Virus record (IMG/VR): IMGVR_UViG_3300032303_002003
Coordinates: 32,001 to 96,000 of that record
Length of the DNA stretch: 64,000 bases
Source: a virus
Lineage: Duplodnaviria > Caudoviricetes
Strand: one strand, 5' to 3'
The notes below the pieces were generated by a model. That model had not been told where the DNA came from, made no database searches, and worked only from the letters and a program-made list of their open reading frames with translations. Position 1 is the stretch's first letter. Each line of letters opens with the position of its first letter. Of the stretch, positions 3,154-63,723 are shown one piece after another. The position numbers were made by a program, and so were the translations under genes.

Positions 3154-3762
3154 ATGAAAATAAGATTAACAGAGTCGGAACTTATTAGTTTAATAAGACA
3201 AACTATTAAAGAACAAAGATGCGGAAAAGAAAAAGGATTTGGTTGTAAAGAAAAAGGTGATATAACAGGCTCAAACCTATCTAAAATTGGTGGTATAAGC
3301 GGTGGCGATAAAGGAGTTGGTGACGGTACATACGAAGACACAATTAGTGGCGGTTCAAATTTTGCGGAAATTAGTAATTTCTTATCTTACGATGATAATG
3401 ATAAAGATTTAATTATGACATCATATAAAAATGATAGAGATTCGTTACCTGCTGAAGTTCAACCACCAAGTAAAAAAAATAAAATGGATTATTATACTGC
3501 GGCTTGGAGAGATGCTGATAGATTTAATAGAAAAAATTCTAATACAGAATATACAAAATATTTTGACACATCAGGTAATTTTAAAAATCCTGAAGATAGG
3601 TCAAAGTTTATAGGTGCAGATATATATTTTCCTTTTTATAAACACCATTTCCCTAATAAACAAAAAATAACACCTCTTGATGTTATTAATCTATTTAAAA
3701 ATAATCTTGGTGGATTAGATAAATTTGTAACCGCCGCTAGTACAGGGTATAAAATTCAATAA
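3154..3762 (+). CDS. hypothetical protein with class A leader (MKIRLTESELISLIRQTIKE)
   Basis: ORF track; shared leader motif. Confidence 0.7.
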   Translation: MKIRLTESELISLIRQTIKEQRCGKEKGFGCKEKGDITGSNLSKIGGISGGDKGVGDGTYEDTISGGSNFAEISNFLSYDDNDKDLIMTSYKNDRDSLPAEVQPPSKKNKMDYYTAAWRDADRFNRKNSNTEYTKYFDTSGNFKNPEDRSKFIGADIYFPFYKHHFPNKQKITPLDVINLFKNNLGGLDKFVTAASTGYKIQ

Positions 3763-3764
3763 TT

Positions 3765-4232
3765 ATGAAAACAATTAAATTAACAGAAACAGACATAAAT
3801 CGTCTTGTTAAAAAAGTTCTTAGAGAACAAGAATCACCAAATTATATGTTTTTTAGTAATTTGGAACAAATGAAAAGACAATGTGAATTATTATTGGAAT
3901 TAGACCCCCGTACGGTGGACGAGATTCTAATGAATGGACACGATTGGGCTGATGACCATATTTCAACCGCAAAGGAGAATATTGACCAAGTATTTGACTT
4001 TATGATGAATGAAACAAAACGTGAAGAAAATATACCTCACGATGAAATGGATATGATGTCTGAAGGACGTAAAAAATCAGGAACTAAATTATGTGCTCGT
4101 GGTAAATCCGCAGCAAAATCTAAATTTAAGGTTTACCCCTCGGCATATGCGAACGGTTACGCCGTTCAAGTATGTAAGGGTAAAATGCCTGGTTCAGACG
4201 GTAAGAAAAGATGTTCCCCACCTTATTGTTAA
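3765..4232 (+). CDS. hypothetical protein with class A leader and basic Cys-containing C-terminal module (KFKVYPSAYANG)
   Basis: ORF track; leader MKTIKLTETDINRLVKKVLRE. Confidence 0.7.
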   Translation: MKTIKLTETDINRLVKKVLREQESPNYMFFSNLEQMKRQCELLLELDPRTVDEILMNGHDWADDHISTAKENIDQVFDFMMNETKREENIPHDEMDMMSEGRKKSGTKLCARGKSAAKSKFKVYPSAYANGYAVQVCKGKMPGSDGKKRCSPPYC

Positions 4233-4269
4233 GAAATTAAAAACCCCTCCAAAAGAGGGGTTAATTTTT

Positions 4270-4695
4270 TTACTGAATATCCATCACTTCTAAATCAAAT
4301 ATGAGTTTCTTACCCGCCAAAGGATGATTAGCATCAATCTTAATCATATCCTCCATAACATCTACTACTGTTACATTTACAGGGCCCATACTACTTTGAG
4401 CATTTAAGATATCACCCGCCTGAACATTCTCAGGAAATTGAGTTTTAGGTACATCAAATACCATTTCTTCTTTATAATCACCATAAGCATCTACCGCCTC
4501 AATTTCAATTGTTTTCTTTTCTCCAATCTCCATCTCAAGAAGTCCATTTTCAAATCCTGGAATTACTTGTTTTGCACCAATAGTTGCTTTAATAGGTTCT
4601 CTTCCTTCAATTAAGGAAGTATCAAAAATTTGTCCATCTTCAAATTTTCCTGTGTAATTTACACTTACTGTGTCTCCGTTTTGTACTTTTTTCAT
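4270..4695 (-). CDS. FKBP-type peptidyl-prolyl isomerase (SlyD/SlpA-like)
   Basis: VSVNYTGKFEDGQIFDTS, VIPGFENGL and DANHPLAGKKLIF motifs. Confidence 0.92.
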   Translation of the reverse strand: MKKVQNGDTVSVNYTGKFEDGQIFDTSLIEGREPIKATIGAKQVIPGFENGLLEMEIGEKKTIEIEAVDAYGDYKEEMVFDVPKTQFPENVQAGDILNAQSSMGPVNVTVVDVMEDMIKIDANHPLAGKKLIFDLEVMDIQ

Positions 4696-4761
4696 TATTA
4701 TTTTTTTTTAAAAATAGGTGACTATATTTGTTTAATCAATAAAAAACACTAACTTTGTGTT

Positions 4762-5163
4762 ATGAATACTGAAAAAAAATCCGGATTACTTCATAGATTA
4801 TACCTATATCTTAAAAACAAGTTTGACCCTACTCCCGAACCTAAAGAAGAAGAAATTTATGTTCTTGAAATTTGTAAAAAATTAATTGTTAATACAAATT
4901 CAAAATTAACAAATGCACCAATTTCGTTTAAAAGATTTATAAAAAATGACGATAATAATATGTTTATTGTTATTAACAACAGAACAATAAGTCTAATAAA
5001 TCACGTATATAGTTATAATGTTTTTATTGAATCATTTGAACATTATTCAGACATTTGTGAATTATTTGATAATGAAATGGAAAAAAGAAGACAAGAACTT
5101 GAAGATGAAATAAAAAATAATATTCAACATTCTTTAAAAGAAATACTTAAAAAAGTTAGTTAA
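4762..5163 (+). CDS. hypothetical protein
   Basis: 133 aa ORF; TAACTTTG four nt before ATG. Confidence 0.65.
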   Translation: MNTEKKSGLLHRLYLYLKNKFDPTPEPKEEEIYVLEICKKLIVNTNSKLTNAPISFKRFIKNDDNNMFIVINNRTISLINHVYSYNVFIESFEHYSDICELFDNEMEKRRQELEDEIKNNIQHSLKEILKKVS

Positions 5164-7375: not shown

Positions 7376-7425
7376 AATTATAAATATACAACATTTATCC
7401 AAAAAATCTATAGTTATTATAATAA

Positions 7426-7458
7426 ATAAAAAAAAAGGAGACAATTTCTTGTCTCCTT
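7426..7458 (-). terminator. intrinsic terminator after major capsid gene
   Basis: AAGGAGACAA/TTGTCTCCTT stem followed by T-run on minus strand. Confidence 0.85.
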
Positions 7459-7480: not shown

Positions 7481-9244
7481 TTATCTCAATTCTCTTAAAT
7501 CAAATGTTCTAACACCATCTACAGTAATTCTTCCGTAAAAGCGATTATTTACCATCTTTTTTGCGTATCTAGTCATGATACCTTTGATTGGTGTAAAGTT
7601 AAACGGATTGTACATAGTTGGAGTTAATTGTAGAGGTACGTACGGTGCGTAGATGTAACCTGTATCTAACAATGACGTTCCTTTGTGTCCCATTAAAACT
7701 GTGTTTGCTGGGAAGTAAGGGTCACGATAAACTTGGTAACGACCAGCCAAAGTACCTACTCTTTCAATACCCATATTGTATTGGTCTTGCTCAGGAGCTG
7801 CGTTTGATACGTGGAAATATTCCAAATCATCAAAAATTGCACTGATTTCAGAAGAAACAACAATCCAGTTAGCACCACCTCTAAGAGTTGATTTATGGAT
7901 TTGTGCAGAAATTTGGTTGATTGCAGTAATCAAAGTTTGGTTCCAATCTTTTTGAGTGTATGGAACTGCTTGACTTCCTAATCTCTTCCAACCGTTGTAA
8001 TCCCAACGTAAGTTCCAAGCGGCACCTTTACGTAAATCACGAAGGATTTCACGGTCGATTTCCGCCGCAACTTGTTCAGACAATAAAGCTGTTAATTCAG
8101 CTTCAGCGTCAATGTTGTGGAATGCTGCAACGTCTTGAGCCATTTCAGGAGACCATTGAGCTCTTAATTTTCTTTCAGTAACAGAAACTGTTACAGATTG
8201 AAGGTCAAAAGAAACTTCACCAATTTTATCTTCAAATTCCATATTTTTGTATACTCTGTAAGTTGCGTTAAATAAGTTAGTCGCTGAAGAACCAGCTCCA
8301 ATTGTTGTACCTGAATAACCATCAAGTGAGTTAGCACCTACAGTACAAGGTACTTGTAAATCAACTTCAAGATAGATTATACCATCTGCAGAACAAATGT
8401 TATCATATGTACCACCATTACCTGTTCCAGGGAATGATGTTGTGGTTTGAGTACCATATTGAACAATACCTCTACCATACTTCTGAGTAACAACTCTGAA
8501 AAGGAAGTTACCGCTTACAGCAGAAAGAGCACCAGTACCTGCGGTAATAGTCAAATCAGACAAGAATGATTCGTTATCCATTGTTTGACCATCAGGACCG
8601 ATTAATTTTCCTGCTCCGCCTGACGCAAAACCTGACATAGCAACTAATACTTTTCTGTATTCACCAGCGGTGTAAGCAGAAGTTGCTAAATTACCTCCTG
8701 TCCATACAACAGTAGTTGCAACTGCGCTAATCGCTGAAAATTGACCTTTTGAATAATCAAACAATCCTGGTGGGTCTAAAGCTGGTTCATTACCTTCGTA
8801 GAATCTGTCATACAAATTCTTATCAGTATTCCAGCTGTAACCTGCTCCAGGACTTGTAGGCCCGTTTGGTGCACCTATTGGAGAATAGTGTGCGTTTGCG
8901 GTATCATACCCCTGAATGTTAGGTACAAAGTAGAACAATTTACCAATTGGTAAGTTCATAGCTTGTACAGAAACGATATCGTTAGCCAACAACTTAGAGA
9001 ATACTCTACGTACGATTGGAAACACAACAGTTTCAAATGCACCTGTATCAGATGTTGATGATGCTTCGTTTATCAAGAATGATGCTTGGTTTTCATATAA
9101 CTGTGCAACATTTTCTTTTAGGTGGCCTCTAAGACCTTCAAGGAACCCTAATTTGTCCCATTTGTTAATAGTATCTTCTTTGATAACTTTAAGGTGCTTA
9201 AGACCAATGTTACCAACGAGACCTGATTCTAATAATGCTCCCAT
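7481..9244 (-). CDS. major capsid protein (T4 gp23-like)
   Basis: RKLRAQWSPEMAQD, DAEAELTALLSEQVAAEIDREI, YAPYVPL and GIMTRY motifs. Confidence 0.96.
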   Translation of the reverse strand: MGALLESGLVGNIGLKHLKVIKEDTINKWDKLGFLEGLRGHLKENVAQLYENQASFLINEASSTSDTGAFETVVFPIVRRVFSKLLANDIVSVQAMNLPIGKLFYFVPNIQGYDTANAHYSPIGAPNGPTSPGAGYSWNTDKNLYDRFYEGNEPALDPPGLFDYSKGQFSAISAVATTVVWTGGNLATSAYTAGEYRKVLVAMSGFASGGAGKLIGPDGQTMDNESFLSDLTITAGTGALSAVSGNFLFRVVTQKYGRGIVQYGTQTTTSFPGTGNGGTYDNICSADGIIYLEVDLQVPCTVGANSLDGYSGTTIGAGSSATNLFNATYRVYKNMEFEDKIGEVSFDLQSVTVSVTERKLRAQWSPEMAQDVAAFHNIDAEAELTALLSEQVAAEIDREILRDLRKGAAWNLRWDYNGWKRLGSQAVPYTQKDWNQTLITAINQISAQIHKSTLRGGANWIVVSSEISAIFDDLEYFHVSNAAPEQDQYNMGIERVGTLAGRYQVYRDPYFPANTVLMGHKGTSLLDTGYIYAPYVPLQLTPTMYNPFNFTPIKGIMTRYAKKMVNNRFYGRITVDGVRTFDLRELR

Positions 9245-9279: not shown

Positions 9280-10752
9280 TTACAACATCTTACCCATCAA
9301 ATCTTTGATTCTCAAAAATTGAGGATTTTCGTAAGTTTTTGATTCAATAAGTGTTGTTGAAGAACCTGTAGAAACATTTTTATTTAATTTAGTTTCAACT
9401 GATTCGTTCATTGGTTTACTTTCAACCTTACCTAATTCGTCTTTGATTGACTTATAAAGATTTTTAGATTCTTTTAAAGTCTCAACATCGTCAAATCTTC
9501 TAAGGATGTTTATTTTTTCTTTTTTAGTAGTTGAGTGTTCTGTGAACAATCTTGTAGCGTAAGCTAAATTTGAATTGAAAATTGCAACCTCATTTAACTT
9601 CTCTCTGAATGTATTCAGAGCTTTTCTGTACTCTTCATTTTTTTCTCTCAACATACTAACTTCTTGTGATAGAGTTTCCTCTTTAAGGTTTCTATTAGGT
9701 GTAATTCCTTTTCTAAGTCCGCCACCTTTTCTTGGGCCCATACCCATTGTTCTTGCAGCTTCTTTAGTTTCAGTTTTCTTAACCATTTGGTTTTTACCAC
9801 CCATATTTTCGCCTTTTTTAAACTCAAATTTTGGTTTACCTGTTCCCATAGTTTTTGGTCCTTCTTTCTTGTCTTCTTTAAAACCGCCAGAAGTTTTCTT
9901 GTATTGGAATTTAGGTTTTCCAATTCCGAGTCCTTTAGGTTTCATACCTTTTTTTGCTTTCTTGTGACTGTATGCTTCATCCATTTGCCAAGAATCGTCT
10001 TCGTCCATTTCGTCATAAGACTCATCCATTTCTTCTTCATCGGATTCATCCATTTCAATTTCATAGATTGTCTCATCCATTTCTTCTTCATCGGATTCAT
10101 CCATTTCGTCATAAGACTCATCCATTTCTTCTTCAGATTCTTCATCCATTTCAATTTCATACATAACACCTTCATCTGTTTCGGTGTCAAAATCATCATT
10201 TGAGCTATCATCAAACATTTGTTTAATGATGTCGTCCATTTCTGTGTCGTCCATTTCTGTTTCGTACATTTCGTCTTCAATTGATTCACCAAGTCTGATA
10301 AGATATTCAGAATCTGTGTTATTATCTTTAAGGGTTACATCAGAACCGTCTTTTTTGATAATAATTCCATCTTCTTCACCCATGGCTTTAAAAACTTTGA
10401 GGATTTCTTCATCAGATGCTCCAGTTAAATCAATTGGAGTTTCATCAGAATCCATATCTACGTTCATATCTACGTCATCCATATCGGTGCCCATATCTAC
10501 GTCCATATCAACTTCATCATCTTTATCTGTATCAACATTCACATCTATATCAGTATCTGTGTCTGTATCAACATCTGCGCCAACAACGTCCTCTTCTTCG
10601 TCATCTTGCTCAGAAAGGGATTCTTTTACTAATTGATTGATTTCTTCCTTCATTGTAGAAGCAAGTATTCCTTTTGCATTTTCGGCTATAGCTTCTTCAA
10701 CATTTTTCATTTGAATAAGCGCCTCTTCAACTAAGTTTTTGTTTTCTTGCAT
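9280..10752 (-). CDS. prohead scaffold/core protein (gp22-like position)
   Basis: Very acidic with coiled-coil C-terminus; lies between protease and capsid genes. Confidence 0.75.
   Translation of the reverse strand: MQENKNLVEEALIQMKNVEEAIAENAKGILASTMKEEINQLVKESLSEQDDEEEDVVGADVDTDTDTDIDVNVDTDKDDEVDMDVDMGTDMDDVDMNVDMDSDETPIDLTGASDEEILKVFKAMGEEDGIIIKKDGSDVTLKDNNTDSEYLIRLGESIEDEMYETEMDDTEMDDIIKQMFDDSSNDDFDTETDEGVMYEIEMDEESEEEMDESYDEMDESDEEEMDETIYEIEMDESDEEEMDESYDEMDEDDSWQMDEAYSHKKAKKGMKPKGLGIGKPKFQYKKTSGGFKEDKKEGPKTMGTGKPKFEFKKGENMGGKNQMVKKTETKEAARTMGMGPRKGGGLRKGITPNRNLKEETLSQEVSMLREKNEEYRKALNTFREKLNEVAIFNSNLAYATRLFTEHSTTKKEKINILRRFDDVETLKESKNLYKSIKDELGKVESKPMNESVETKLNKNVSTGSSTTLIESKTYENPQFLRIKDLMGKML
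10004..10165. repeat. internal tandem duplication encoding (EIE)MDES(D)EEEMDESYDEMDE
   Basis: Block tccatttcgtcataagactcatccatttcttcttca occurs twice about 96 bp apart, with shorter sub-repeats. Confidence 0.8.
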
Positions 10753-11147: not shown

Positions 11148-11861
11148 TTATTTTCCTAAATAATCGGATAATTTTCTCATTAAATCAATAGAGTGGTCAA
11201 CATCTCCTCCTGATTTTAATTTTTTTTCTTCTTCTAAATTCTCCTCATATTTTTCTCTATCATTTTTATCAGAGAATAAATAAGCGCCTGGTGTAGATGG
11301 AGATGAAACTAAATCAAAACAAATTAATTCAAAATCATCTTGAACTTCATTTCTTTCACCAACTTTTTTAAGTGAACCAACACCCCTTGATGAAATACCA
11401 AGAGTAACTCCTTGTCTCATTAAGTTTGCTGCAATATCTCCCTTTGTTGAAACTATACCTTTTTCGTGAAATCCTGGTGATGTTAATAATTTTAATTTTC
11501 CCATTAAAATGTTATTATCCCACCATATATCTGTAATGATGTGAGATACCCTATCTAAATCAATAAGAGACGATTCAGGGTGATTTAATTCAGAAGTTGA
11601 TAAACCTTTATTTATTGTTGTTTTATATTTATCAGCCTCTCTTTTAAGTATTTTTTCAGGGTAAAATCTACCGTTTCTGTTTGGTGTATTGTATTTTTGT
11701 AGAACAGCATAAAATTCAAACGGATTTCTATAATCCATTAATTTTTGTTCTTGTAAAAATTTTGAGTTAAATCCATCTTTTGGAGATATGTATCCGGCAT
11801 CCATTTCAACAAGAATACCAAATCCTATTTCATTTGCTTCTAAAAGTCTTAATTCTTTCAT
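11148..11861 (-). CDS. prohead core protease (T4 gp21-like)
   Basis: NRNGRFYP, ELNHP, GISSRGVGS and FDLVSSPS motifs. Confidence 0.93.
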   Translation of the reverse strand: MKELRLLEANEIGFGILVEMDAGYISPKDGFNSKFLQEQKLMDYRNPFEFYAVLQKYNTPNRNGRFYPEKILKREADKYKTTINKGLSTSELNHPESSLIDLDRVSHIITDIWWDNNILMGKLKLLTSPGFHEKGIVSTKGDIAANLMRQGVTLGISSRGVGSLKKVGERNEVQDDFELICFDLVSSPSTPGAYLFSDKNDREKYEENLEEEKKLKSGGDVDHSIDLMRKLSDYLGK

Positions 11862-11896
11862 TTATTTCTTTTAAGATAAATATTGCAAATAATGAG

Positions 11897-12411: not shown

Positions 12412-12597
12412 ATGTTAATAGTACAAATAAAAAACGGAGAAAATATTGAGAAGGCACTGAAAACCTTGAAATCTAAGGTGATTAAAACTAAGCAAAATCA
12501 GTCACTTACTAAAAGAAAGGAATATGTGAAAAAATCAGTGACCCGTAGAACTGAGATGTTAAAAGCGAAATATAACGAACAAAGAAAGAAATCTTAA
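12412..12597 (+). CDS. rpsU: ribosomal protein bS21
   Basis: MLIVQIKNGENIEKALK...RKEYVKKSVTRR...KAKY; Bacteroidota-type; opposite strand within head module. Confidence 0.9.
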   Translation: MLIVQIKNGENIEKALKTLKSKVIKTKQNQSLTKRKEYVKKSVTRRTEMLKAKYNEQRKKS

Positions 12598-13286
12598 AGA
12601 GATTCCACCAATTTTTTAAGTTTAAAATAACTTAATTGGTCAAATTTTTCATTTTGTATTTTAAGTATTGTTTCTGAAATTTTTGACTTTGTTTCTTCGT
12701 CTGATTCTTTTTCAATTAATGAATTTAATTTAATTGCTGCGTCATCCTTTAATGAATTAAACTTAATCTTTAAAGATTTTGTATCTTCACTTATAATAGT
12801 TTCCAATTCTTTTTTAGAAGTTTCGTCTAAAGTTTGAATAAAATTTTTAATAGTTTGATTTGCAATTTTAACCATCGAACTAATAGGAATATTTACAGAT
12901 TCTTTAATTTTTGTTTTTTCCTGAGTTAAAACTTTAACTAATTCTTTTTTACTCTCTACTCTTTCTTTAATTGATGTTGAATTATATACTAAATTATCAA
13001 TAACCTTGTAGTTATTATCATTACCAAATTTTTCATTTGGCAAACTTATATTTTCAATTAATTTTTGAATTAAATTAATCCCTTCGTTTACAAATTCAAC
13101 CGCATCACGTTCTGATAATCCTTGAGGGGCTGATAATTCCTCATACAGAGAATACAATTTTGCGATACTTTTATTTTCCAAAACATCTTCTTTAAATCCG
13201 AGTAAAGATTTTTTAAAATTTTTCTTATCTGAATAAGATTCAAGTAATTGATTATCTACGTATGTTTTAATTTGTCCGAATGTCAT
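12594..13286 (-). CDS. hypothetical head-module protein
   Basis: 230 aa helical ORF downstream of portal, TATTTAT upstream. Confidence 0.65.
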   Translation of the reverse strand: MTFGQIKTYVDNQLLESYSDKKNFKKSLLGFKEDVLENKSIAKLYSLYEELSAPQGLSERDAVEFVNEGINLIQKLIENISLPNEKFGNDNNYKVIDNLVYNSTSIKERVESKKELVKVLTQEKTKIKESVNIPISSMVKIANQTIKNFIQTLDETSKKELETIISEDTKSLKIKFNSLKDDAAIKLNSLIEKESDEETKSKISETILKIQNEKFDQLSYFKLKKLVESL

Positions 13287-13309
13287 TTTAATATATTTTA
13301 TAATAAATA

Positions 13310-15160
13310 TTACGAATTTAATAACTTATCTAATTCTATATCCATTTCATTAAAGGAATCTATACCTGTTTCAACATCTAGTATTACCGAACCCTCTATA
13401 AACCTTTTTTCAACTAAAATATTTAAGTTATTCTTTCTTGATTCAGGTGTTATTCCCCCTCCTTCGGGTGGTGGTGCCTCTCCTCCTGGTGGAGGTGGTG
13501 GCGGTGCCCCTAAATCGCCTCCTTCGGGTGGTGGAGCCCCTAAATCAGGTGGTGCAGAAGTTTCTTCTCCAGCAGGTTCAGCACCCGCAGTAGATGTTCC
13601 ACCACTTGCGTTGTTACCATAAAGCTTATCAATAGTATCAAATAAACCTGTTTTAGTAATAACTGTTGCTGTTGATTTAAGTTCTTCTCCCACTGCCTTC
13701 TCAAATCTTTGTTGTAATAAATCAACTCTAATTTCTTCATCTGAAAAACCAAAAATATGTTTTTTAGCCCAAGTGGAAGAAACTGCTTGAATACCATTTC
13801 CTGGGTCTGAAACCAAATCTTTATACAAAAGAATTTTTTCTTTATAAACATCAATTTTAAGTAGGTCCGCTTGAGTAGACGGGTTAGTTAAACCTAAAGT
13901 GAAATTTGATAATTCATCTTCAAATCCAAGTAAAAATAAATGCACAATTGCAACTTTATTTAACTCTTGAATCATACTTTTTTGGATTCTATTGATTGTT
14001 CTTGCAAAACGAATATCCTGTAATGATAAATTTTTACCATCACCTACAACTTCCTCAAAACCTAAAAATGCTTTAGGGACACGAAGAGCCGTTAATAGTT
14101 TCTTTTGAATATATTCGATATCCGCAATTTCTGATAGGTTTGTTGCACCTGGTAAAGTTTCAATTGGACTTGGAGATGCTGGGTCACGAACAGGTACAAA
14201 ATAATCTTGGTCTACAGCCATTTGATTAAATCTCATATCCACATTACCCGTATTCTTATCAACGACTTGTTGTCTTTTAAACTTATCGGCAACACGGTTT
14301 ACGTAAGGTTCAACATCTTCATCATTCATATTACCAACAAACACTTTAAATATTCTTCTTTCAGGCGCTCTTGAGGTACGATAAATTAACATCGCATCTT
14401 CCGATAGTAATAATTGTTTCCAAATTCTTCTAGCCTTTTCCAACATAGAAGTACCATAAGGAAGTTTTCTATCATCACCCAATAATCTAAAGTGTGCGAT
14501 TTCCCAAGATTGGAATGTAATTGCTTTTTGTTTCCAAGTAAAAGTTAATGCCTTTTTAGCTTCAGTCTTACCTAAATCCACTGGATGTTTATCACCCATA
14601 CCAACTTCGTGTCTTTCAATTTCAATATTAGGTAACTGTTGGCAACCAACAACACCCTTTTCAGGGTCTAATTTCAAGTAAACAAAGTTATCACCGAATT
14701 TACAAGTATTTCTTGTCCACATCGGTAAGTTTGTATTGATATCTAAAACATTATTAAACAAATCCGCCAATACAGACTTAATCCTTTTTGATTCGGAATA
14801 AATCTGTAACATAAATCCATCTTCATTAACTGTTGTAGATTCTTCGGCGTATATATCTAACGCTGCGGAAATTTCTGGAGTGTACTCCATAGATTCATAA
14901 TCATAAACAGAAGATAATCTTGTTGGTTCGTAATAAATTGCTTGAGAGTATAAATTATTCTCTACTTTAGCCCACTGTTGTGCTAAATAAAATGTTTGTT
15001 GAGCCTGTAGTTTTTCTCTTTCGTATTCTCCCTTATCTTTAGTTCTTAATAATTCTGTTTTATCAAGTTTGAATTGGGGGTAGTCTTGTCCTAGCAAAGA
15101 ATTGGGTCCGAATGTCTTACCGAGCCTCTGCCATACCGTTAAATTGTTATTTTCAGCCAT
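13310..15160 (-). CDS. portal protein (T4 gp20-like)
   Basis: PEISAALDIYAEE, EDAMLIYRTSRAPERRIF, IETLPG and ALRVPKAFL motifs. Confidence 0.95.
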   Translation of the reverse strand: MAENNNLTVWQRLGKTFGPNSLLGQDYPQFKLDKTELLRTKDKGEYEREKLQAQQTFYLAQQWAKVENNLYSQAIYYEPTRLSSVYDYESMEYTPEISAALDIYAEESTTVNEDGFMLQIYSESKRIKSVLADLFNNVLDINTNLPMWTRNTCKFGDNFVYLKLDPEKGVVGCQQLPNIEIERHEVGMGDKHPVDLGKTEAKKALTFTWKQKAITFQSWEIAHFRLLGDDRKLPYGTSMLEKARRIWKQLLLSEDAMLIYRTSRAPERRIFKVFVGNMNDEDVEPYVNRVADKFKRQQVVDKNTGNVDMRFNQMAVDQDYFVPVRDPASPSPIETLPGATNLSEIADIEYIQKKLLTALRVPKAFLGFEEVVGDGKNLSLQDIRFARTINRIQKSMIQELNKVAIVHLFLLGFEDELSNFTLGLTNPSTQADLLKIDVYKEKILLYKDLVSDPGNGIQAVSSTWAKKHIFGFSDEEIRVDLLQQRFEKAVGEELKSTATVITKTGLFDTIDKLYGNNASGGTSTAGAEPAGEETSAPPDLGAPPPEGGDLGAPPPPPPGGEAPPPEGGGITPESRKNNLNILVEKRFIEGSVILDVETGIDSFNEMDIELDKLLNS

Positions 15161-22053: not shown

Positions 22054-22986
22054 TCATCGTGGACCTTTAACGGTTTTGTCTTTTGATATGTCGGCGTGTA
22101 ATCCGCTATATAATGCTTGAGCTTCAGTTTTTGAACCATTTTCGTTTTTACTAGAAAAATGTGGATACTGAGTTACAAACTCTTTCCATTCATTATAATT
22201 GGGGAAGTAGTGAGTATTTTGAAATACCTCACCTGATGGCGTATCTTCTCTCCAAGAAACACTAAAATTGGTTATAGGATTTGTTCTTGGTGGTTGTGAT
22301 TGTACAACCTTTTTTTCGGGTGTAAAATCTGGATTAGTATTTTTTATGTTTTCGGGGGTTTTAATTGGTTCTATAGGTTTTATTGGGGTACTTGTTTGAA
22401 GTGTTGGTTTTTCACCGGGGTCGGCATAATAAGGACTTCTGGCAATACCATCATAATAAGCCCCTTGTGGTTTTAAATATTTATGAACCAAATCCGGAGA
22501 GGAATATTCACCAATTGCGATAGGAAAATTAAATTTTAAACTTTTATAATAATTTAAAATTTTAAAATCACCATATTTTGCATCCATAGGGTCATTACTC
22601 TCAGGATTAGAATTACGACTTAATATGTTATAATCGGTACCAAGACTTTCTCCCTTAATAATATTACCAGGGGTTGTTTTATAATTTCTAATTAAATTTT
22701 TATATAGTTTTTCAAAAGTATAATTACCTCCGTATTTGTTTAACACCTCTACTCTTGATTTTATATCTTCTTTCCAGTTACAATTAGTTTTTTGAAAAAG
22801 ATATGCTTTATGTAAACTAACTGCATCCTCCCAATATTTTAATGCACAATTATATTCCTGTTCATTATCATAAACCTTTTTTTTAGGGTCATACTTGAAT
22901 TTTGAACAGTTTTTATTTGATTCGGGTTCTTCATTAAGAATTCCCATTATTGATTTAATTCTTGATAGTTGTTCATTTAATTTCAT
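22054..22986 (-). CDS. hypothetical protein with class B leader (MKLNEQLSRIKSIMGILNE)
   Basis: Start moved to ATG four nt after TATTTAT. Confidence 0.7.
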   Translation of the reverse strand: MKLNEQLSRIKSIMGILNEEPESNKNCSKFKYDPKKKVYDNEQEYNCALKYWEDAVSLHKAYLFQKTNCNWKEDIKSRVEVLNKYGGNYTFEKLYKNLIRNYKTTPGNIIKGESLGTDYNILSRNSNPESNDPMDAKYGDFKILNYYKSLKFNFPIAIGEYSSPDLVHKYLKPQGAYYDGIARSPYYADPGEKPTLQTSTPIKPIEPIKTPENIKNTNPDFTPEKKVVQSQPPRTNPITNFSVSWREDTPSGEVFQNTHYFPNYNEWKEFVTQYPHFSSKNENGSKTEAQALYSGLHADISKDKTVKGPR

Positions 22987-23596: not shown

Positions 23597-25657
23597 ATGA
23601 ATGAACTAATGGATGATGATGACAAAATGATGAGTAAGAAAAAAACCTCGTCAGAAAGTGATACACCTGTGTTAGATAATTTCAGTAGGGATTTAATTAA
23701 ACTTGCCGAACAAGGTAAATTAGACCCTGTTATTGGTAGAGAAAAAGAAATCCTACGTATCGCACAGATTTTATCTCGCAGAAAGAAAAATAACCCAATT
23801 ATTATTGGTGACCCAGGTTGTGGTAAAACCGCAATTGTTGAGGGATTGGCAATTAAAATCTATAATGGTGATTGCCCGAGAAATTTGGTAGATAAAAGAA
23901 TTGTTGAACTTGATTTGACTTCCGTTGTTGCTGGTACAAAATACAGAGGACAATTTGAGGAAAGATTGAAAGTTATTATGGAAGAACTCCATAACAATCC
24001 AAACATTATTGTCTTTATTGATGAAATCCACACCTTGGTTGGTTCGGGAAACTCTTCAGGTTCTATGGATGGCTCCAACATCTTTAAACCTGCTCTTGCT
24101 CGTGGTGAACTCCAATGCATCGGTGCAACAACCCTCAATGAATTCAGAAAGAATATTGAAAAGGATGGAGCACTTGAACGCAGATTCCAAAAAATAATTG
24201 TTGAACCTTCATCAGTTAAGGAAACAATTGAGATTCTTAAAAACATCAGAGAAAAATATGAAACCTATCACAAGGTGAATTATAGTGATGAAGTAATTGA
24301 AGCTTGTGTTAAACTTGCGGACAGATATATCACGGATAGAGGTTTTCCTGATAAAGCATTTGATATTTTGGATGAAGTTGGGGCAAGAATGCAAACCGAA
24401 GTAAAAGTTCCTGAAGAAATTGAGGTATTGAAAAAACAAGCGGCGGAATTGAAACAATTAAAAGTTGACGTTGTTAAAAGACAACAATACGAGAAAGCAG
24501 CAGAGTTAAGAGATAAGGAGAAAAAACTTTTGGGTAAATTGGAAGCGGAGAAAAAGAAGTTTGAAGAGCAGATGCAAAAAGATAAACAAAAAATTTCTGT
24601 TGAGGATGTTTATAGTGTTGTATCTACAATGACAAACATTCCTGTAAGTAAAATGAATGTTGACGATAATGCGGCACTCATAAATCTTGATAAATCCTTA
24701 ATTGATAAGGTTATTGGACAGAATAATGCGGTTATTAAAATTGCAAAATCAATTAAAAGAAACAGATTAGGTATTAAAGACCCAAATCGTCCAATTGGTT
24801 CATTTGTATTTCTTGGTTCAACAGGTGTTGGTAAGACATATCTCGCAAAACAACTGGCAAAAGAGATTTTCGGTAGTGAAGATTCACTCATTAGAGTTGA
24901 TATGTCGGAATATCAAGAGAAACATAGTATATCAAAAATGTTAGGCACTACCGCTGGTTATGTTGGGTATGATGATGGAGGATTTTTAACTGAAAAAGTA
25001 AAAAATAAACCATATTCTGTAATTTTATTTGACGAGGTTGAGAAGGCTCATAAAGACATATTCACAATATTACTTCAAATTTTAGATGATGGGTATGTGA
25101 CTGACGGACAAGGTAGAAAAATCAACTTCAAAAATACTTTAATCATTTTGACTTCAAATATCGGAGTTAAAAAATTACAGGACTTTGGAACAGGAATTGG
25201 TTTTAGCACAAATGCTTATAGCAATGAAGAGGCTAAAAAACAAATGCTAATGAAAGAAATGAAAAACTTTTTCTCTCCCGAATTTATCAATAGGATTGAT
25301 GATACAATAGTATTCAACACATTAAATTCTGACGATATTAAGAAAATTACTAAAATTGAATTAGATAAGTTAATGGAAAGAATTAAAGGGATGAATTATA
25401 CTTTCACATATGATGATAAATTGGTTGATTTAATACATAAAGTGGGGTATGATGAAACTTATGGAGCAAGACCAATTAAAAGAGCAATTCAAGATAGGGT
25501 TGAGGATTACATCTCAGAAGAAATACTTAAAGGTATTGTTAAAGAAGGAGAATCTAGATTTATTGATGTTATTGACGACCAATTAGTTTTGATTCAATCG
25601 CCCGAAGTAGAAGAGGAAACCAAGAAAAGAACAAGAAAAAAGAGAGGGGTTAACTAA
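23597..25657 (+). CDS. clpC: ClpC-like Hsp100 ATPase lacking the N-terminal Clp repeats
   Basis: Two AAA modules ([14 protein letters not shown]; [17 protein letters not shown]), UVR-like YEKAAELRD middle domain, IGF ClpP-docking loop. Confidence 0.9.
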
Positions 25658-25772: not shown

Positions 25773-26132
25773 TTATTTACACCAATTTTCAGATAAACGT
25801 TGTTCAAGACCTGCGTCCGTATATACTTTACCATCTCCACCCAAAGAAACACCAGTTAATTTTCCTGTTTGACAACTGAAACCTATTTCGTGTCTACCTT
25901 GACCACCAAAATTAACTACGAGTATTTGACTATACGGAGATTTTTGATTAGTTGTTTTTGAAGGGTTATAAATTTTTTCTATCTTTCCAAGCATTTTTTT
26001 CTTGCTTGTTTCCATAATAAAATTCATTTGAGAACCAATAATTGAGCCGCTATAATTATTTTTTTGTTCTTTTATAACTCTTTTAACCAATCTTGTTAAA
26101 TCAGATTCTGTTAATCTTACAATTTTTGCCAT
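25773..26132 (-). CDS. hypothetical protein with class A leader (MAKIVRLTESDLTRLVKRVIKE)
   Basis: ORF track; shared leader; TATTTAT upstream. Confidence 0.7.
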   Translation of the reverse strand: MAKIVRLTESDLTRLVKRVIKEQKNNYSGSIIGSQMNFIMETSKKKMLGKIEKIYNPSKTTNQKSPYSQILVVNFGGQGRHEIGFSCQTGKLTGVSLGGDGKVYTDAGLEQRLSENWCK

Positions 26133-40856: not shown

Positions 40857-40861
40857 AATAA

Positions 40862-41593: not shown

Positions 41594-41601
41594 TTTTATA
41601 A

Positions 41602-42696: not shown

Positions 42697-42740
42697 AATA
42701 TTTTTATTTATAAATATATTTAATATATAAAAAATTTATT

Positions 42741-45470
42741 TTATTCTGTTTTTTTAATGTTTTGACCATTTTCAGAATCTTCCATATCATTATAATATTT
42801 TAAAACTTCTTCATTATTTCCATTATAAAACCACGTACCAATTGGAGGATTAGAAGAGTTTATAATTTTTATAAAATCATCTTCTGTATAGTTTATTTGT
42901 TTTTTTGTTTGTTTATCTGTGAAAGTAATATATTTTTCTTTCTTTTTTTGTCCTGCAATCGCCTCTTGAATCTCCTTATTAATTTCATCTCTAACTTGTT
43001 GGGCCTTTTCTTTGGGTATTGTTGTAACAGTATAACCTTCTATAAGTTTTGCCTTTTCTTTTATAATAAAATCTTTTTTTCCTTTAATGACATCAGAAGA
43101 TAAAACTGCTTTTTGTTCATTGGATAAACTAACATTTAATGCAATTTGTTCCAAATAAATTCTCATAATCAATTGTTGATTTGGACTCAAATTATTCATG
43201 TAAGTTTTGGCGGCTCTTTTTTCTTGTTCAGTTTCTATACAATTCTTACAAAATTGGTTGATAAATTCAACAGTTTTGTCATGTAAATCTTCAATAGTTT
43301 TCATTACTTTAAAATCAGTATATATGGTTGCCCCAAATTTGACAATTCCCGGAATTTTTCTAACTTTAGATGTTTTTTCAGCAAAATTTTCAAGGTTTGA
43401 AAAAACATTTTTAAAATCGTTTTCACTTAAAGACATGCTTTTTCTAAAAATTAAAGATTCTTCTTTTGTTAAAAATCCTGAGGCCAAAAATTGTTCCATT
43501 TGTTTAGGAGTATTTAATAATCCTTCATTTAATGAGCTAATTTTTTCTGCAAGACTTTTTGTAACATCAACTGTTAATTCTTCCGCCTTAAATATATTTG
43601 CAACCTTACCATATATCTTATGTATTTGTGGTAAACAAGCAAAGAAAAATGACAATGCAGCCTCTTTAGTATCTCCTTTGGCAAGTTGATAAGTTCCAAC
43701 ACTAACATTCATTATGATATCTGCAGCTGTTGCAGCACCAACTAACCAAGGTGCAGCACCGCCCATAGTACAAATAGTTGTAATTGTTGCAATCCCTAAC
43801 TGAGCCCATATTAACCATTCATCAATAAAATAATCAAAAGCATTTCTATTATCATATCCATAATTTTGAATTGTGCCACTAACCATAGCTTTTAACTTAT
43901 TATATTCATCTTTTTGCTCATCAGTTAAATAATTATAAACAAATTCCATCACAGTACCATTTGATGTACCATCCATATCAAAATTTGTAACCTCAAACTG
44001 ATGTGACTCTTCAAATTCTTTTAATTTTTGTTTCGCAGTACTTAATTCTTGTTTAAATTTAATTTTTAATTCCGGACAAATACCTGTTGGAAATTTTTCA
44101 TCATAATATTTGTTGATTAAATTAGTTATTTGAACTCTACAATTATTACTTGGTGTTTTTGACTCTTCTTTTGTTGCGGCAATTTGAACGGAACTAGGTA
44201 ATGTAGATGGTCTAGGAAATTTATTGGAAATTATTTTTCCTGACTCATCAAGAAAATATTTATCCCATTCTTTGCTATAAGCACAACTCAAATCCAATGG
44301 ATTTGTAATTATTTCATATAATTCAGTTAAAAAATCTTCATAACAAAAAGGACTAAATCCTTTTGGGGTCGTTATTTCTAAATTAGGAGTTAATCTTTGT
44401 TCAAATTTTTCTCCTGCAATTCTCATATGCTGCTCTACTCTGTTTTCTAAATTTGCCTTATTTACACTACATCTCAACTGACCTTCACTAGTTGTTATTA
44501 GTAAATTATAATCAAATTGATTTCCGTCATCAATTAACGATGGACTACCACCACCATAATATCTATTATTTTTTACTTTTTCATATAAACTTTTAAGATT
44601 TATTAATCTTGACATATCAACCTTTACAATAACATATCCTGTATAATTTGGAGGAATTTCTTTACTTGTAAATTCAAAATCAGTTACTTCATCCATCCAC
44701 TCTTGAGCGTTTTTTTGACCTAAATAATCACTCTGATACGATGTCGCATATATTTCAACTTTTTCTATTTTTAAAGGTCTATCAGTGTTGTTATTACTTA
44801 TTTCATAGGTTATTGTAGTTGCTTTTGGAAAATTTTGATACCCAAATTCTATTGGTTTATCTTTACTTATTTTAACACTAACTAACCCCGTGTTATCTTT
44901 TGGGTCATCGGTCTTCCAATTATATGGAGTTTGAGGTCTTTCACCTTTGTATAACACATTTTTTGTTCCTTCTCCACTTGAATTATAAACATAATAACCT
45001 TTAAAATAATAACCATTAAATTTATCTTTAGGGTCTCCTCCTTTTTTTTGGGTTATATAGGCTCTCATTTCATCACCATTTTCTTTTTCAAATGAAGAAA
45101 CTGAGGGGATATTTAAAAACTCTTGAAACAATTCTTTATTCCACAACTGGCCAGTTGAACCTGTAAATTTACTACCATCATTTGCAACCCAATTTGAAGG
45201 GTCTGCTGTTGTGTCAAAAATATCTGTTATTATTATATTTGAAGGTGCGTATAACGAAAATTTACCGTCTGGTGATTTTATTCTATTATTTTGATAAACT
45301 TGTTTAATTTCATCCGTACTATATTTAGGAGAAGTTGGGAATGATTGTGGGGCCTCAATAATTAAACTTTTTTTATTTTCTGTTAAAGTTTTTTTTGTGT
45401 CATAATTCATTAATAACTTCATTCTATGAAGTAATTCATTTGTTTCTTGAATTGTAAAATTTTTCTTCAT
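42741..45470 (-). CDS. large protein with class B leader, Ig-like segment and hydrophobic hairpin
   Basis: 909 aa; YEISN....PLKIEKV...EIPP..TG.V.V; WAQLGIATITTICTMGGAAPWLVGAATAAD. Confidence 0.65.
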   Translation of the reverse strand: MKKNFTIQETNELLHRMKLLMNYDTKKTLTENKKSLIIEAPQSFPTSPKYSTDEIKQVYQNNRIKSPDGKFSLYAPSNIIITDIFDTTADPSNWVANDGSKFTGSTGQLWNKELFQEFLNIPSVSSFEKENGDEMRAYITQKKGGDPKDKFNGYYFKGYYVYNSSGEGTKNVLYKGERPQTPYNWKTDDPKDNTGLVSVKISKDKPIEFGYQNFPKATTITYEISNNNTDRPLKIEKVEIYATSYQSDYLGQKNAQEWMDEVTDFEFTSKEIPPNYTGYVIVKVDMSRLINLKSLYEKVKNNRYYGGGSPSLIDDGNQFDYNLLITTSEGQLRCSVNKANLENRVEQHMRIAGEKFEQRLTPNLEITTPKGFSPFCYEDFLTELYEIITNPLDLSCAYSKEWDKYFLDESGKIISNKFPRPSTLPSSVQIAATKEESKTPSNNCRVQITNLINKYYDEKFPTGICPELKIKFKQELSTAKQKLKEFEESHQFEVTNFDMDGTSNGTVMEFVYNYLTDEQKDEYNKLKAMVSGTIQNYGYDNRNAFDYFIDEWLIWAQLGIATITTICTMGGAAPWLVGAATAADIIMNVSVGTYQLAKGDTKEAALSFFFACLPQIHKIYGKVANIFKAEELTVDVTKSLAEKISSLNEGLLNTPKQMEQFLASGFLTKEESLIFRKSMSLSENDFKNVFSNLENFAEKTSKVRKIPGIVKFGATIYTDFKVMKTIEDLHDKTVEFINQFCKNCIETEQEKRAAKTYMNNLSPNQQLIMRIYLEQIALNVSLSNEQKAVLSSDVIKGKKDFIIKEKAKLIEGYTVTTIPKEKAQQVRDEINKEIQEAIAGQKKKEKYITFTDKQTKKQINYTEDDFIKIINSSNPPIGTWFYNGNNEEVLKYYNDMEDSENGQNIKKTE

Positions 45471-45473
45471 TGA

Positions 45474-45728: not shown

Positions 45729-45740
45729 AACTTATAAATA

Positions 45741-46037: not shown

Positions 46038-46123
46038 ATGGTTTGTTTTATAAAGAAATATCACAAAATATATGAAAATCTACATTTGCATAAAAAAACC
46101 CTCCGTTTTGGAGGGTTAATTTT

Positions 46124-53211: not shown

Positions 53212-53248
53212 AGTCCAATCAAAACTGCCTTCTCATATATTTATTGTT

Positions 53249-62013: not shown

Positions 62014-62952
62014 TTAAATACATTTTTGAACTAGTGATGAAATTGGTTTTGGTGGTACCTTTTTATCGTGAAAATAATAAAACTCTCCTTCAGATGGAAA
62101 TACTGAAATACCTTTATAAGGTATTGATTTTAACGCATCATTCTGGTTTGATTTAACTTGTATTGAAAACCAAATATTTCTACATTTCATCGCACCATCA
62201 AATCCTGCTCTATCTACAAAATTACCACCGCCTGAAAAAATCCTTAAATTTTCTTCACTCACACCTAATTGTCTTAACTGATTAAAAAATTTATTTTCAA
62301 CTTCTTGTCCTCCACCCCAAGTTTTTGAAAAAATAGTTTGTTTATAATTTTCTCTATCAATCAATATCGCTCTTAATAAATCGTGAGCGGCCATTGAGTC
62401 CGAACCACCACTATAATATTCTTCTAAAAAATCATCAACATTTATTTCTGTATTAGAATCAATTCTATTGTTAATTAAATTAATCCACAGAATAATATTA
62501 TTATCAAACATATTAACAATACTCCATTCGTCGTCTTTTTCGTGAAATAAAACAATAAATTTTGAATTTGGATTAACTAATTGTAATTCTAAAAAATCTA
62601 AATTTTCTTTTAAATCATTTCTTTTTGAATTTGATAATTCTAAATTATCAAAAACAAAATTAATATCCTCTATATTTTTTTTAATAAACTCAGCACTAGG
62701 AACTTTTAATTGTAAACCATGCTTTTCTAACCAATAATTTATTTTTCTATTAGTATTAGGTTCAATATAATTTTTAATATCACTAAAAATTTTCACACCC
62801 GAACCTTTAATTTTATCTTTCTGAGAATCAGTTAAAGAGTTATAGGTTAATTTCTTTAAATTTGGTTTTTTTTCAGTATTATTATCTTCCATAATAGTTC
62901 TTTTCACCAAAGATACTAACTCAGATTCACTTAACCTAATAATTTTTTTCAT
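62014..62952 (-). CDS. class A leader protein with PD-(D/E)xK-like C-terminal domain
   Basis: MKKIIRLSESELVSLVKRTIME; G.EVE...D..GFD......SIQVKS. Confidence 0.55.
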   Translation of the reverse strand: MKKIIRLSESELVSLVKRTIMEDNNTEKKPNLKKLTYNSLTDSQKDKIKGSGVKIFSDIKNYIEPNTNRKINYWLEKHGLQLKVPSAEFIKKNIEDINFVFDNLELSNSKRNDLKENLDFLELQLVNPNSKFIVLFHEKDDEWSIVNMFDNNIILWINLINNRIDSNTEINVDDFLEEYYSGGSDSMAAHDLLRAILIDRENYKQTIFSKTWGGGQEVENKFFNQLRQLGVSEENLRIFSGGGNFVDRAGFDGAMKCRNIWFSIQVKSNQNDALKSIPYKGISVFPSEGEFYYFHDKKVPPKPISSLVQKCI

Positions 62953-63014
62953 ATTTCTATAAATACTATGTAAAAATAAAAAACCCCACTCTTTTGAAGT
63001 GGGGTTTAATGTTT

Positions 63015-63290
63015 TTACTCAGCTGGAGGAGGTGGAGGTGTGTCATCAGGGTTTGTTGGTTTTTTTCCCCATATTTTATCAACAGAGGATAAACCCAAAC
63101 ATCCAAAAGCCAACATAGCCACAGCATCTACTAACGGAGTTGATGGTGCAATGTGTTGTTCTGTGAAACTATTTTGATACAAAGTCGCACAAAGTGTGAT
63201 TGTACAAAAAAGTCCACAAAGACGCTTCATTGAAACATTTCCGTGTTCATCTGAGAATAAACTTCTGATAGAATTAAAAAGTCCTTTCAT
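63015..63290 (-). CDS. two-TM protein, possible holin
   Basis: SMKRL followed by two hydrophobic segments; TATTTAT upstream. Confidence 0.5.
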   Translation of the reverse strand: MKGLFNSIRSLFSDEHGNVSMKRLCGLFCTITLCATLYQNSFTEQHIAPSTPLVDAVAMLAFGCLGLSSVDKIWGKKPTNPDDTPPPPPAE

Positions 63291-63353
63291 AATATTGGTA
63301 ATTTACTTACCAATAAATAGTTTCAAAAAGTAAATAGTTAATACTATTTTTTG

Positions 63354-63428
63354 TGGTAGGACCAAGAATCGAACTTGGGGCACACGACATCTCTGCACGC
63401 TGCTCTAACCCACTGAGCTATCACTACC
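63354..63428 (-). ncRNA. tRNA-like RNA lacking a canonical anticodon loop
   Basis: Good D-arm GCTC/GAGC and T-arm CCAAG-TTCGATT-CTTGG; bulged acceptor stem; anticodon arm folds best with a GAGA tetraloop. Confidence 0.7.
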
Positions 63429-63432
63429 ATTA

Positions 63433-63723
63433 TTAATTTATTAAATTCCCGTCAATATATTTTTTAATTGTTCTTCTCAAAGTTGGTTCGTCAATATCAT
63501 TCCATTTACCATCTTCCAAATTGAAAATTTTATTAACCATATTTTTTTTATTTCCGGTTAATATTTTCCTTTTGTCATCAATTGTTATAAAATGAACGAT
63601 ATTATCAAGTATTTTTTGAGAATCTACGGGGTACGCTCTTTTAAGATGTCTTAAAAACTCATCCGAAGTATTATCTTGATATTTTGATAAAATTTGTTTT
63701 TTTTCTTCTTCGCTAATGAACAT
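63433..63723 (-). CDS. hypothetical protein with class C leader (MFISEEEKKQILSKY)
   Basis: ATG four nt after TATTTAT. Confidence 0.6.
   Translation of the reverse strand: MFISEEEKKQILSKYQDNTSDEFLRHLKRAYPVDSQKILDNIVHFITIDDKRKILTGNKKNMVNKIFNLEDGKWNDIDEPTLRRTIKKYIDGNLIN

Follow-up and report, generated by a model that had tools for sequence, protein, structure and literature searches.

Why should a single phage place the same few short peptides at the start of proteins that otherwise have nothing in common? The question is raised by a 64 kb stretch of viral DNA, bases 32001-96000 of the 132,903-bp IMG/VR record IMGVR_UViG_3300032303_002003 (30% G+C). This whole stretch is called the window below, and coordinates are counted in it, including those that run past its end. 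A preliminary description of the window listed otherwise unrelated open reading frames (ORFs) that begin with one of three amphipathic leaders, and proposed that these form a modular tag loading diverse cargo into the phage head. Our analysis partly confirmed the observation. The leader phenomenon is robust and, as judged from sequence, the leaders are N-terminal, virus-specific, modular, selected at the peptide level, and end at protease-type motifs common to the capsid propeptide. That they are portable N-terminal loading and cleavage propeptides, working like the capsid targeting sequence (CTS) of phage T4, is the best of the explanations considered, and one that we find evenly balanced; core binding, cleavage, presence in the virion and ejection are the steps that we infer.

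The record has a CheckV completeness of 44% and, since its IMG/VR relatives rated at least 98% complete measure 295-326 kb, it is a fragment of a T4-like jumbo phage of about 300 kb. By capsid, the closest deposited phages are 42-45% identical (an uncultured 484-kb phage, Flavobacterium phage immuto, and Microcystis phage Mel-JY01).

Shared leaders on unrelated proteins

Among the 163 proteins of at least 80 aa, the N-terminal 30-mers formed 80 pairs with an ungapped BLOSUM62 score of 40 or more; internal 30-mers averaged 2.35 such pairs and shuffled N-termini 1.5. At least one such N-terminal partner was found for 39 proteins (4.6 and 2.9 in the same two controls). The bodies, taken from residue 36 on, gave just seven BLASTP pairs at E<1e-3 in the whole genome. 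Leader scores come from class models trained on other genomes only, with which 198 N-termini were scored; the shuffled maxima were 7.1-9.6 bits (class A 8.8, class B 7.1, class C 7.4, class Y 9.3). Initial hidden Markov models of classes B and C were discarded as circular, their training set having held the ORFs under test, and the external models were used instead. A six-frame scan of the record with the external models found 33 genes (12 of class A, 14 of class Y, 4 of class B and 3 of class C), in all of which the leader is N-terminal and in a fixed register, plus one extra internal Y-like copy. An additional local class, R (MNLxxTIRRILKEE), was found in four genes, all beyond the end of the window, and most leader carriers lie there too, at 65-93 kb. 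The leader genes and candidates of the window itself are the following.

3154..3762, plus strand, class A, 202 aa, external model 26.2 bits
3765..4232, plus strand, class A, 155 aa, 38.6 bits, with a C-terminal phrog_27331 region
25773..26132, minus strand, class A archetype, 119 aa, 63.4 bits
62014..62952, minus strand, class A, 312 aa, 39.5 bits
48116..48736, plus strand, class Y, 206 aa, MNFLITE/TQLKFLVE/G, 15.2 bits with the external class Y model (shuffled maximum 9.3)
22054..22986, minus strand, class B, 310 aa if started from the Met at 22986, 44.8 bits with the external class B model
32100..32726, plus strand, diverged class B, 208 aa, with a 5-residue N-terminal extension, 16.7 bits
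6268..6663, minus strand, class C, 131 aa, 33.3 bits with the external class C model (shuffled maximum 7.4)
39744..40856, minus strand, class C, 370 aa, 19.1 bits, in a minus-strand cluster with a PG-binding (peptidoglycan-binding) protein and a 909-aa protein
63433..63723, minus strand, class C, 96 aa from the Met at 63723, 11.0 bits
46124..46894, minus strand, candidate for class C, marginal, 256 aa, 5.2 bits, a score above the 99th but below the 99.9th percentile of shuffles
41602..45470, minus strand, two ORFs (41602-42696 and 42741-45470) not validated as class B, -1.5 and 1.4 bits
29802..31265, plus strand, 487-aa protein with a T4-CTS-like N-terminus, MKFSEFVLSE/GRR, family-specific

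Ten of the 17 ORFs originally listed were validated and further carriers were found outside the window, while several listed members fail. All four class A members (3154, 3765, 25773, 62014) held up. The ORF at 48116, which had been described as a shorter class A, has a leader that passes but belongs to a fourth class, Y, with the motif MKYIITE(S/T/E)Q. From the class B list we retain 22054 and 32100, the latter with an exact match of LNEQIDRMK to IMG/VR locus L103, and drop 41602, 42741, 32730 (0.4 bits) and 19395 (0.1 bits). The class C list stands for 6268, 39744 and 63433, with 46124 marginal. A C-terminal version of class A reported in 5156 is weak to marginal, at 8.8 bits against this genome's class R model.

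The protein at 29802 does begin MKFSEFVLSE, and in its homologues with aligned N-termini the form MKF..h(L)LxE followed by (G/N)R is kept in four out of four. This N-terminus resembles the T4 CTS (MKTYQEFIAE/A) at the processing positions and not at the targeting positions. It is family-specific and possibly a CTS of the T4 form, not a leader common to unrelated proteins. Two look-alikes were set aside. The start of the head protease gene described below, MKELRLLE, mimics class A and was dropped, being kept in only three of eight genomes. The endonuclease-VII-like gene at 6686-7444, with a probable internal-Met start MRKLILTEEQIKEIL, is leader-like by eye and does not rise above the shuffled maxima with the external Y and C models.

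Three arrangements around leader genes were recorded on the side. The minus-strand cluster at 39060-46894 encodes large proteins without known function (370, 243 with PG_binding_1, 364, 909, 84, 107 and 256 aa), and its layout resembles an ejection-protein operon; the one validated leader in it is that of 39744. A 230-aa protein at 85708-86400 (L004:1708-2400) has a hybrid N-terminal leader and an internal Y-like IITESQFDRY right after an Asp/Glu run, and looks like two leader-bearing modules fused. The adjacent paralogues at 75968-76366 and 76627-76941 (L003:11968-12366 and L003:12627-12941) share the body motif F(L/F)(E/D)x(M/I)FKDxIYxES, with an MKYIITE leader on one of them only.

The consensus of class A is M-x-K-I-V-R-L-T-E-S-D-L-T-R-L-V-K-R-V-I-K-E-Q, laid out as a short hydrophobic stretch, a Thr-x-x-Asp/Glu helix start and an amphipathic helix. 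Classes A, Y and C have a common core, h-h-x-[LI]-T-E (h, hydrophobic), at residues 5-9; class Y resembles the first half of class A, and class R the second half. With the joins as putative cut points, the leader of 3154..3762 reads MKIRLTE, then SELISLIRQTIKE, then Q. That of 25773..26132 reads MAKIVRLTE, then SDLTRLVKRVIKE, then Q, and that of 22054..22986 reads MKLNE, then QLSRIKSIMGILNE, then E. An AlphaFold2 model of 25773..26132, made from five sequences and with a mean pLDDT (predicted local distance difference test) of 55.3 usable for secondary structure only, shows helix over residues 9-25, then coil as a linker, then a beta body. As for Sec, Tat and lipoprotein signal features, the leaders are charged and amphipathic, and a hydrophobicity scan showed no transmembrane (TM)-like stretch in any of them; a signal-peptide reading was rejected because the leaders lack hydrophobicity.

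A leader boundary that resembles head-protease sites

The head module of this phage lies on the minus strand in the T4 gene order 20-67-68-21-22-23 (synteny), with two small genes between the portal and S77 protease genes.

15199-16962, minus strand, TerL
13310..15160, minus strand, gp20-type portal protein (phrog_213, 1e-63)
12594..13286, minus strand, core-protein-like gene of 230 aa in the portal-protease interval, dense in [IL]xE
11148..11861, minus strand, gp21-type prohead serine protease, Peptidase_S77 (PF03420, 1.6e-22, 80.4 bits with a cut-off of 27; phrog_207, 7.4e-44)
9280..10752, minus strand, scaffold/core protein in the gp22 position by T4 synteny, 490 aa, with an acidic middle
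7481..9244, minus strand, Gp23-type major capsid protein (MCP; PF07068, 4.6e-72, 243.9 bits)

The gp21-like protease of the preliminary description is thus indeed encoded in the window. According to the relevant part of PMC9026906, L/I-X-E is the motif behind which T4 gp21 cuts, an Asp at P1 prevents processing in T4, and the T4 CTS consists of residues 1-10 of the internal protein IPIII, among which residues 8 and 10 are needed for processing. The relevant part of PMC5694885 gives 10-20 residues for T4 CTS propeptides and 65 for the gp23 propeptide, and describes propeptides as often multi-site. In the MCP encoded here the propeptide (residues 1-60) has the sites ALLE6, VIKE23/D, LKE44, LYE51 and LINE60/A, that is, five [IL]xE in the first 60 aa versus three in the other 527. 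Sites 6, 23, 51 and 60 are kept in eight out of eight genomes, whose whole MCPs are 74-83% identical, and a BLASTP alignment places I58-N-E60/A opposite L63-T-E65/A66 of T4 gp23. Because four of the MCP sites are kept in all eight genomes and the last one aligns with the T4 gp23 site, the specificity of the head protease is probably T4-like. The S77 protease has [IL]xE near residues 19 and 38, also kept in 8/8 genomes. The core-protein-like product of 12594..13286 has 11 such sites (4.8 per 100 aa versus 1.5 in the proteome), and the scaffold of 9280..10752 has 10, with an N-terminus conserved across the eight genomes. Separately, in a complete 321-kb relative (G014:C1:183695-185221) the S77 match falls in two pieces within a 603-aa frame, which may be an insertion or a fusion.

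The same motif is concentrated in the leaders. It occurs within the first 30 aa of 40 out of 41 leader proteins versus 51 out of 146 others, counts that are not independent, since members of a class are homologous and the effective sample is a handful of families rather than 41. The leaders have 72 sites in total; over 2000 composition-preserving shuffles the figure was 30.0 +/- 4.5 and never came to 72. The density was 6.3 per 100 positions in the leaders and 1.2-1.7 elsewhere. The motif also marks where leaders close. In logos of IMG/VR copies, which were ascertained by pattern (positions 3-11 of A, 3-11 of B) and similarity ranking, 88 unique copies of class A have L7 in 88, E9 in 88 and E22 in 87. 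Position 21 (x), which separates I20 from E22, varies more than any other position of this leader. Information is 4.2 bits at position 22 and has dropped to 0.85 by position 24. Among the 34 unique class B copies, all have G15 and 30 have E19, where information is 3.6 bits, against 1.3 one residue further on. The closing sites are VIKE in class A, (I/L)NE in class B and ILKE in class R, and conservation collapses right after them, as shown for A and B. The claim that most leaders end in hydrophobic-x-Glu therefore holds for the leaders of classes A, B and R, and in part for those of Y and C, which have the early I-T-E only. The closing tetrapeptides match sites of the MCP: VIKE/Q or D in class A and VIKE/D in the capsid protein, (I/L)NE/A,E,S in class B and LINE/A in the capsid protein. 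The MCP propeptide was also the top non-leader N-terminus against the class A model (5.9 bits, a post hoc observation).

Distribution and modularity in other genomes

Database searches identified at least 621 matches to the class A pattern in IMG/VR, at least 542 of them confirmed. The same pattern in 596 Gb of prokaryote genomes gave 36 matches, of which five were confirmed, all in metagenome-assembled genomes. For class B there were 222 pattern matches and 41 confirmed loci in IMG/VR; 35 of 36 unique copies start exactly at Met1, and the consensus is MNLQEQISRIQSMMGVINE. By these counts the leaders are virus-specific. Positions in other genomes were counted in 79 class-A-seeded viral loci (435 kb), where 138 of the 141 class A matches lie 3-5 residues past a Met, all 22 class Y matches at a Met or one residue away, all four class B matches at Met1, and all 11 class C matches 3-5 residues past a Met. 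Class R had no match in these 79 loci, and no wider search for it was made. Complete relatives have 6-14 class A genes each.

The leaders are found on a large variety of bodies. The 22-residue class A leader is near-invariant on the metagenomic proteins P0006-P0020, which have unrelated bodies, and among the orthologues of 25773 (P0002-P0005) it is about 100% identical in proteins that are 58-84% identical as a whole. Pooling 41 carriers from this genome with 119 from others gives 160 carriers on at least 124 mutually unrelated bodies. Leader swap or loss was seen in four body families: the pterin-4a-carbinolamine dehydratase (PCD) body has a B leader here (92204-92623) and a Y-like leader in L081 (L081:3496-3771), a PG-binding body has an A leader in one context and none in an endolysin, and the body of 47495-48082, leaderless here, has a Y leader elsewhere. 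At the DNA level, 30% of identical leader residues are encoded by different codons (codon identity 0.70 versus 0.52 expected), third codon positions of the leader are the least conserved, and nucleotide identity reaches 0.72 within the leader, compared with 0.38 and 0.33 over the 60-69 nt on either side. Judged on these figures, leader conservation is mainly at the peptide level.

The same data bear on whether the leaders have a dedicated function at all. They could be N-terminal helices that evolve slowly in a small number of large paralogous families, the bodies having diverged too far to be recognised, with gene conversion helping. The excess in codon identity does indicate some shared ancestry or conversion. 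Some class Y genes are similar beyond the leader (RL..LRR...PCDY) and are true paralogues, many carriers sit in tandem arrays, and hhh-(L/I)-T-E-E is a common helix-start pattern, as in the PCD case discussed below. Such an origin does not sit well with the presence of the leader on different folds (PG_binding+YkuD, PCD, LysM), with homologous bodies that occur with different leaders or none, or with a DNA identity that drops to background at both leader boundaries. Nor does it explain near-identical 22-mers across many genomes while orthologous bodies drift to 58% identity, and we consider it quite improbable.

Strings typical of the leaders (LTESDL, IITESQ, RLTESEL) had no occurrence in the literature searched, in which the matches to YIITE were unrelated text. 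A topic search on capsid targeting sequences and jumbo phages, at the level of titles and abstracts, returned no paper describing these leader families.

Cargo and expression

Two leader-bearing proteins of this genome have a recognised function, a PG_binding_1 + Tlde1/YkuD enzyme with a class A leader (65093-66106) and the PCD with a class B leader (92204-92623). One further carrier has a match to DUF6576 and the remaining bodies have no Pfam match. In other genomes, 5 of 103 non-redundant carriers have one (three PG_binding_1, one LysM and one Pterin_4a). The bodies have a median length of 138 aa here and a median net charge of -2.1 per 100 aa, versus -1.5 in other proteins (Mann-Whitney p=0.29). 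A TM-like segment was seen in one of the 41 leader proteins, that of 48116, near the C-terminus (residues 180-203). The cargo types proposed earlier were not borne out. Membrane and basic proteins do not agree with a single TM-like segment and with bodies that are not basic; the supposed peptidase at 32730 has a sub-threshold M23 match and a leader that is not validated; and no validated leader was found on a recognised nuclease. The PG_binding_1 and LysM cargo has no signal peptide and so needs a non-Sec route to the periplasm, which delivery by the virion would give.

The leader genes or their operons had also been said to follow TATTTAT. This is a real, oriented upstream box: it was the top 7-mer in 198 upstream windows, being present in 58 of them versus 29 for the best same-composition permutation and 25 on the antisense strand, and it lies most often 11-13 nt from the ATG. 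Leader genes are not alone in having it: the box is upstream of 20 of the 41 leader genes, but also of 38 of the 157 remaining genes, among them those for the scaffold, protease, portal, TerL and tail. Leader genes without the box lie within operons, and several dispersed ones show a terminator hairpin, then the TATTTAT box, then the gene; 25773..26132 has its own terminator and box, and both are likewise upstream of 22054..22986. Our interpretation is that TATTTAT would be a late-promoter-type element of the phage; if it is of the -10 type, many late mRNAs would be leaderless or nearly so. Examples of (A)TATTTAT(A) are found at 11862-11885, 13287-13312 and 26133-26160.

The leaders might alternatively be degrons or adaptor tags for the phage ClpC-like unfoldase with ClpP, or for host AAA+ proteases, and would then time the destruction or unfolding of late proteins. 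The phage encodes the corresponding machinery.

23597..25657, plus strand, ClpC/ClpB-like double AAA+ unfoldase (AAA_2 3.6e-66, AAA_lid_9, ClpB_D2-small, UVR)
38278..38952, plus strand, ClpP protease (PF00574, 1.4e-55)
23040-23426, phage-encoded Hsp20

ClpP is present in four of five complete leader-bearing genomes, and the relevant part of a survey suggests that the Clp ATPases of jumbo phages may work as translocases or help virions to assemble (PMC7824862). The degron reading is weakened by G002, a complete 321-kb genome bounded by direct terminal repeats, which has eight class A genes but no ClpP, and it accounts neither for the [IL]xE boundary nor for the resemblance to the MCP propeptide. 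To our knowledge, no known Clp degron resembles these leaders, and we regard this explanation as very improbable.

Possible destination of the leader proteins

The proposal of a modular tag that loads diverse cargo into the head is partly supported: a T4-type head, an S77 protease and modular N-terminal leaders are present, and parts of the cargo list are lost. Besides the dependence among the [IL]xE counts and the ascertainment of the logos, a number of points weigh against a propeptide role. An amphipathic helix with much I, L, K and E easily yields a motif as short as the three-residue [IL]xE. In classes Y and C, [IL]xE is confined to residues 5-8 and conserved sequence continues beyond the early I-T-E, and class C has no closing [IL]xE. 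Leader classes A, B, C and Y show no sequence similarity to the T4 CTS MKTYQEFIAE of the IPIII and IPII N-termini. The carriers number at least 37 in a 44%-complete fragment, far above the handful of T4, and their bodies are not basic, unlike the T4 internal proteins. In the 91-aa PCD homologue of L081 the Pfam domain starts at residue 7, so the leader there may be the native N-terminal helix of the fold. A tblastn search of the A, B and C leaders against deposited phages found nothing, with short queries and a low-complexity filter under which near-identical copies only were detectable. Co-occurrence with the protease fits the model but may just reflect the confinement of the leaders to one viral clade. 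PF03420 was found in 6/6 leader-bearing records that are at least 90% complete and in 13/22 long records overall, the nine without it being 26-61% complete. PF03420 and PF07068 together were found in 9/13 long class-A-bearing records, including 5/5 that are at least 90% complete, the four without them being 40-61% complete. Among class-B-bearing records PF03420 was present in 4/9, including the one complete record. A complex prediction of scaffold and protease with the class A protein 25773, run without controls, scored 0.00 against a mark of 0.32, which counts neither for nor against the model.

Alternatively, the leaders could be uncleaved docking peptides for another hub, such as the baseplate or tail spike, a decoration of the capsid exterior, or a host factor, with [IL]xE as a by-product of the helix. 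The class A genes 3154 and 3765 share one operon, right behind baseplate/spike-like genes, and have no TATTTAT box of their own; this co-transcription makes a tail destination possible, which is a further point against the head. Glycan-binding modules (PG_binding_1, LysM) and a Tlde1-like domain (per Pfam, an L,D-transpeptidase-type family) among the cargo would also suit such a hub, and the conservation of nearly all residues of the 22-mer, and not of one face alone, suits a specific binding partner, as does the conservation of classes Y and C past the early I-T-E. Docking alone leaves unexplained why in two unrelated families conservation ends precisely at the Glu of h-[IL]-x-E, a motif whose x varies and whose Glu is invariant, and why their closing tetrapeptides match MCP propeptide sites. 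We judge it unlikely, though the most probable of the alternatives.

Under the propeptide reading the following sequence of events can be proposed. Late expression would start from a TATTTAT-type promoter common to head and tail genes. The leader of 7-23 residues, with its short hydrophobic strand and Thr-capped amphipathic helix, would then confer affinity for the scaffold core of the prohead. The gp21-type S77 protease would cut after [IL]-x-Glu, at L/I-T-E at residues 7-9 in classes A and Y/C, and at a second site closing the leader, VIKE in A, (I/L)NE in B and ILKE in R. Diverse, fast-changing small soluble proteins, including peptidoglycan-binding ones, would thereby be freed in the head and delivered with the DNA.

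Comparison with known systems

The closest precedent is the T4 CTS of IPI, IPII, IPIII and Alt, which is removed by gp21 (Mullaney and Black 1996, as described in the relevant parts of PMC9026906 and PMC5694885) and is likewise a short N-terminal peptide common to unrelated proteins that ends in L/I-x-E. The gp21-family protease, the scaffold in the gp22 position, the Gp23 capsid and a variable, fast-evolving set of carriers are further likenesses. T4 IPIII and IPII both start MKTYQEFIAE/A, a form that only the 29802 family resembles here. The phage described here differs in having at least four leader families instead of one, up to 22 residues long and with two invariant Glu in class A, on dozens of carriers per genome (6-14 for class A alone) versus about five. 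The bodies are not basic and the system is known from its sequence alone.

In phiKZ, 201phi2-1 and SPN3US the propeptides of ejection and inner-body proteins are cut by gp21-like proteases at S/A/G-x-E or A-x-E, in a jumbo-phage setting where many head proteins are processed after Glu and propeptides are multi-site (relevant part of PMC5694885). The same part of that source describes identical N-termini on the diverged paralogues gp53 and gp54 of SPN3US. The propeptides of these giant phages are mostly longer than 100 residues, shared by paralogues only, and have a small P3 residue (PMC5694885, same part), whereas the leaders described here are short, occur on unrelated bodies and have I/L at P3 as in T4.

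The cargo-loading peptides of encapsulins are likewise short portable tags, by which diverse cargo enters an HK97-fold shell. An encapsulin tag usually sits at the C-terminus and attaches to the shell protein directly, without being cleaved. Precursors of ribosomally synthesised and post-translationally modified peptides (RiPPs), such as the prochlorosins, also have a near-invariant N-terminal leader on many different downstream sequences in one genome. Bodies here reach 536 aa (68-479 aa in other genomes), some being whole enzymes, and no modification enzymes or Gly-Gly motif were seen; a RiPP-leader reading was rejected on account of body size.

A broader proposal, which we put forward tentatively and hold to be more doubtful than the propeptide role itself, concerns a whole clade of T4-like jumbo phages of about 300 kb. 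In these, a multi-class address code of at least four leader families closing on the protease motif might load several dozen unrelated fast-turnover proteins, perhaps a fifth of the coding capacity. The result would be a pre-packaged proteome, including periplasm-acting cell-wall binders, delivered with the DNA, and the tags, spread across hundreds of uncultured viral contigs, could be a common currency for the exchange of cargo genes. Were the leaders to load cargo, a curiosity of three proteins in T4 would become a general and much expanded strategy, with dozens of injected proteins per virion whose genes are recognisable from sequence. Candidate first-minute effectors (anti-defence, host-takeover, cell-wall) of uncultured jumbo phages could be listed directly, many small ORFans of these genomes would fall into one testable functional category, and new short, natural and apparently orthogonal tags would be at hand for packaging foreign proteins in phage heads. 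Even if the destination is not the head, nearly invariant 20-residue peptides on more than 120 unrelated bodies point to a specific binding partner.

Other features of the window

Endonuclease VII/HNH-like genes are present at 6686-7444 and 29160-29717, and a homing-endonuclease gene at 53165-53965 (phrog_655) overlaps the 3' end of the endolysin gene at 52396-53211. The thymidylate synthase ORF at 57884-59038 encodes 384 aa and its PHROG match covers only about 277 profile positions, suggesting an insertion. A single tRNA-Glu(UUC) gene lies on the minus strand at 34174-34246, in an ORF-poor stretch.

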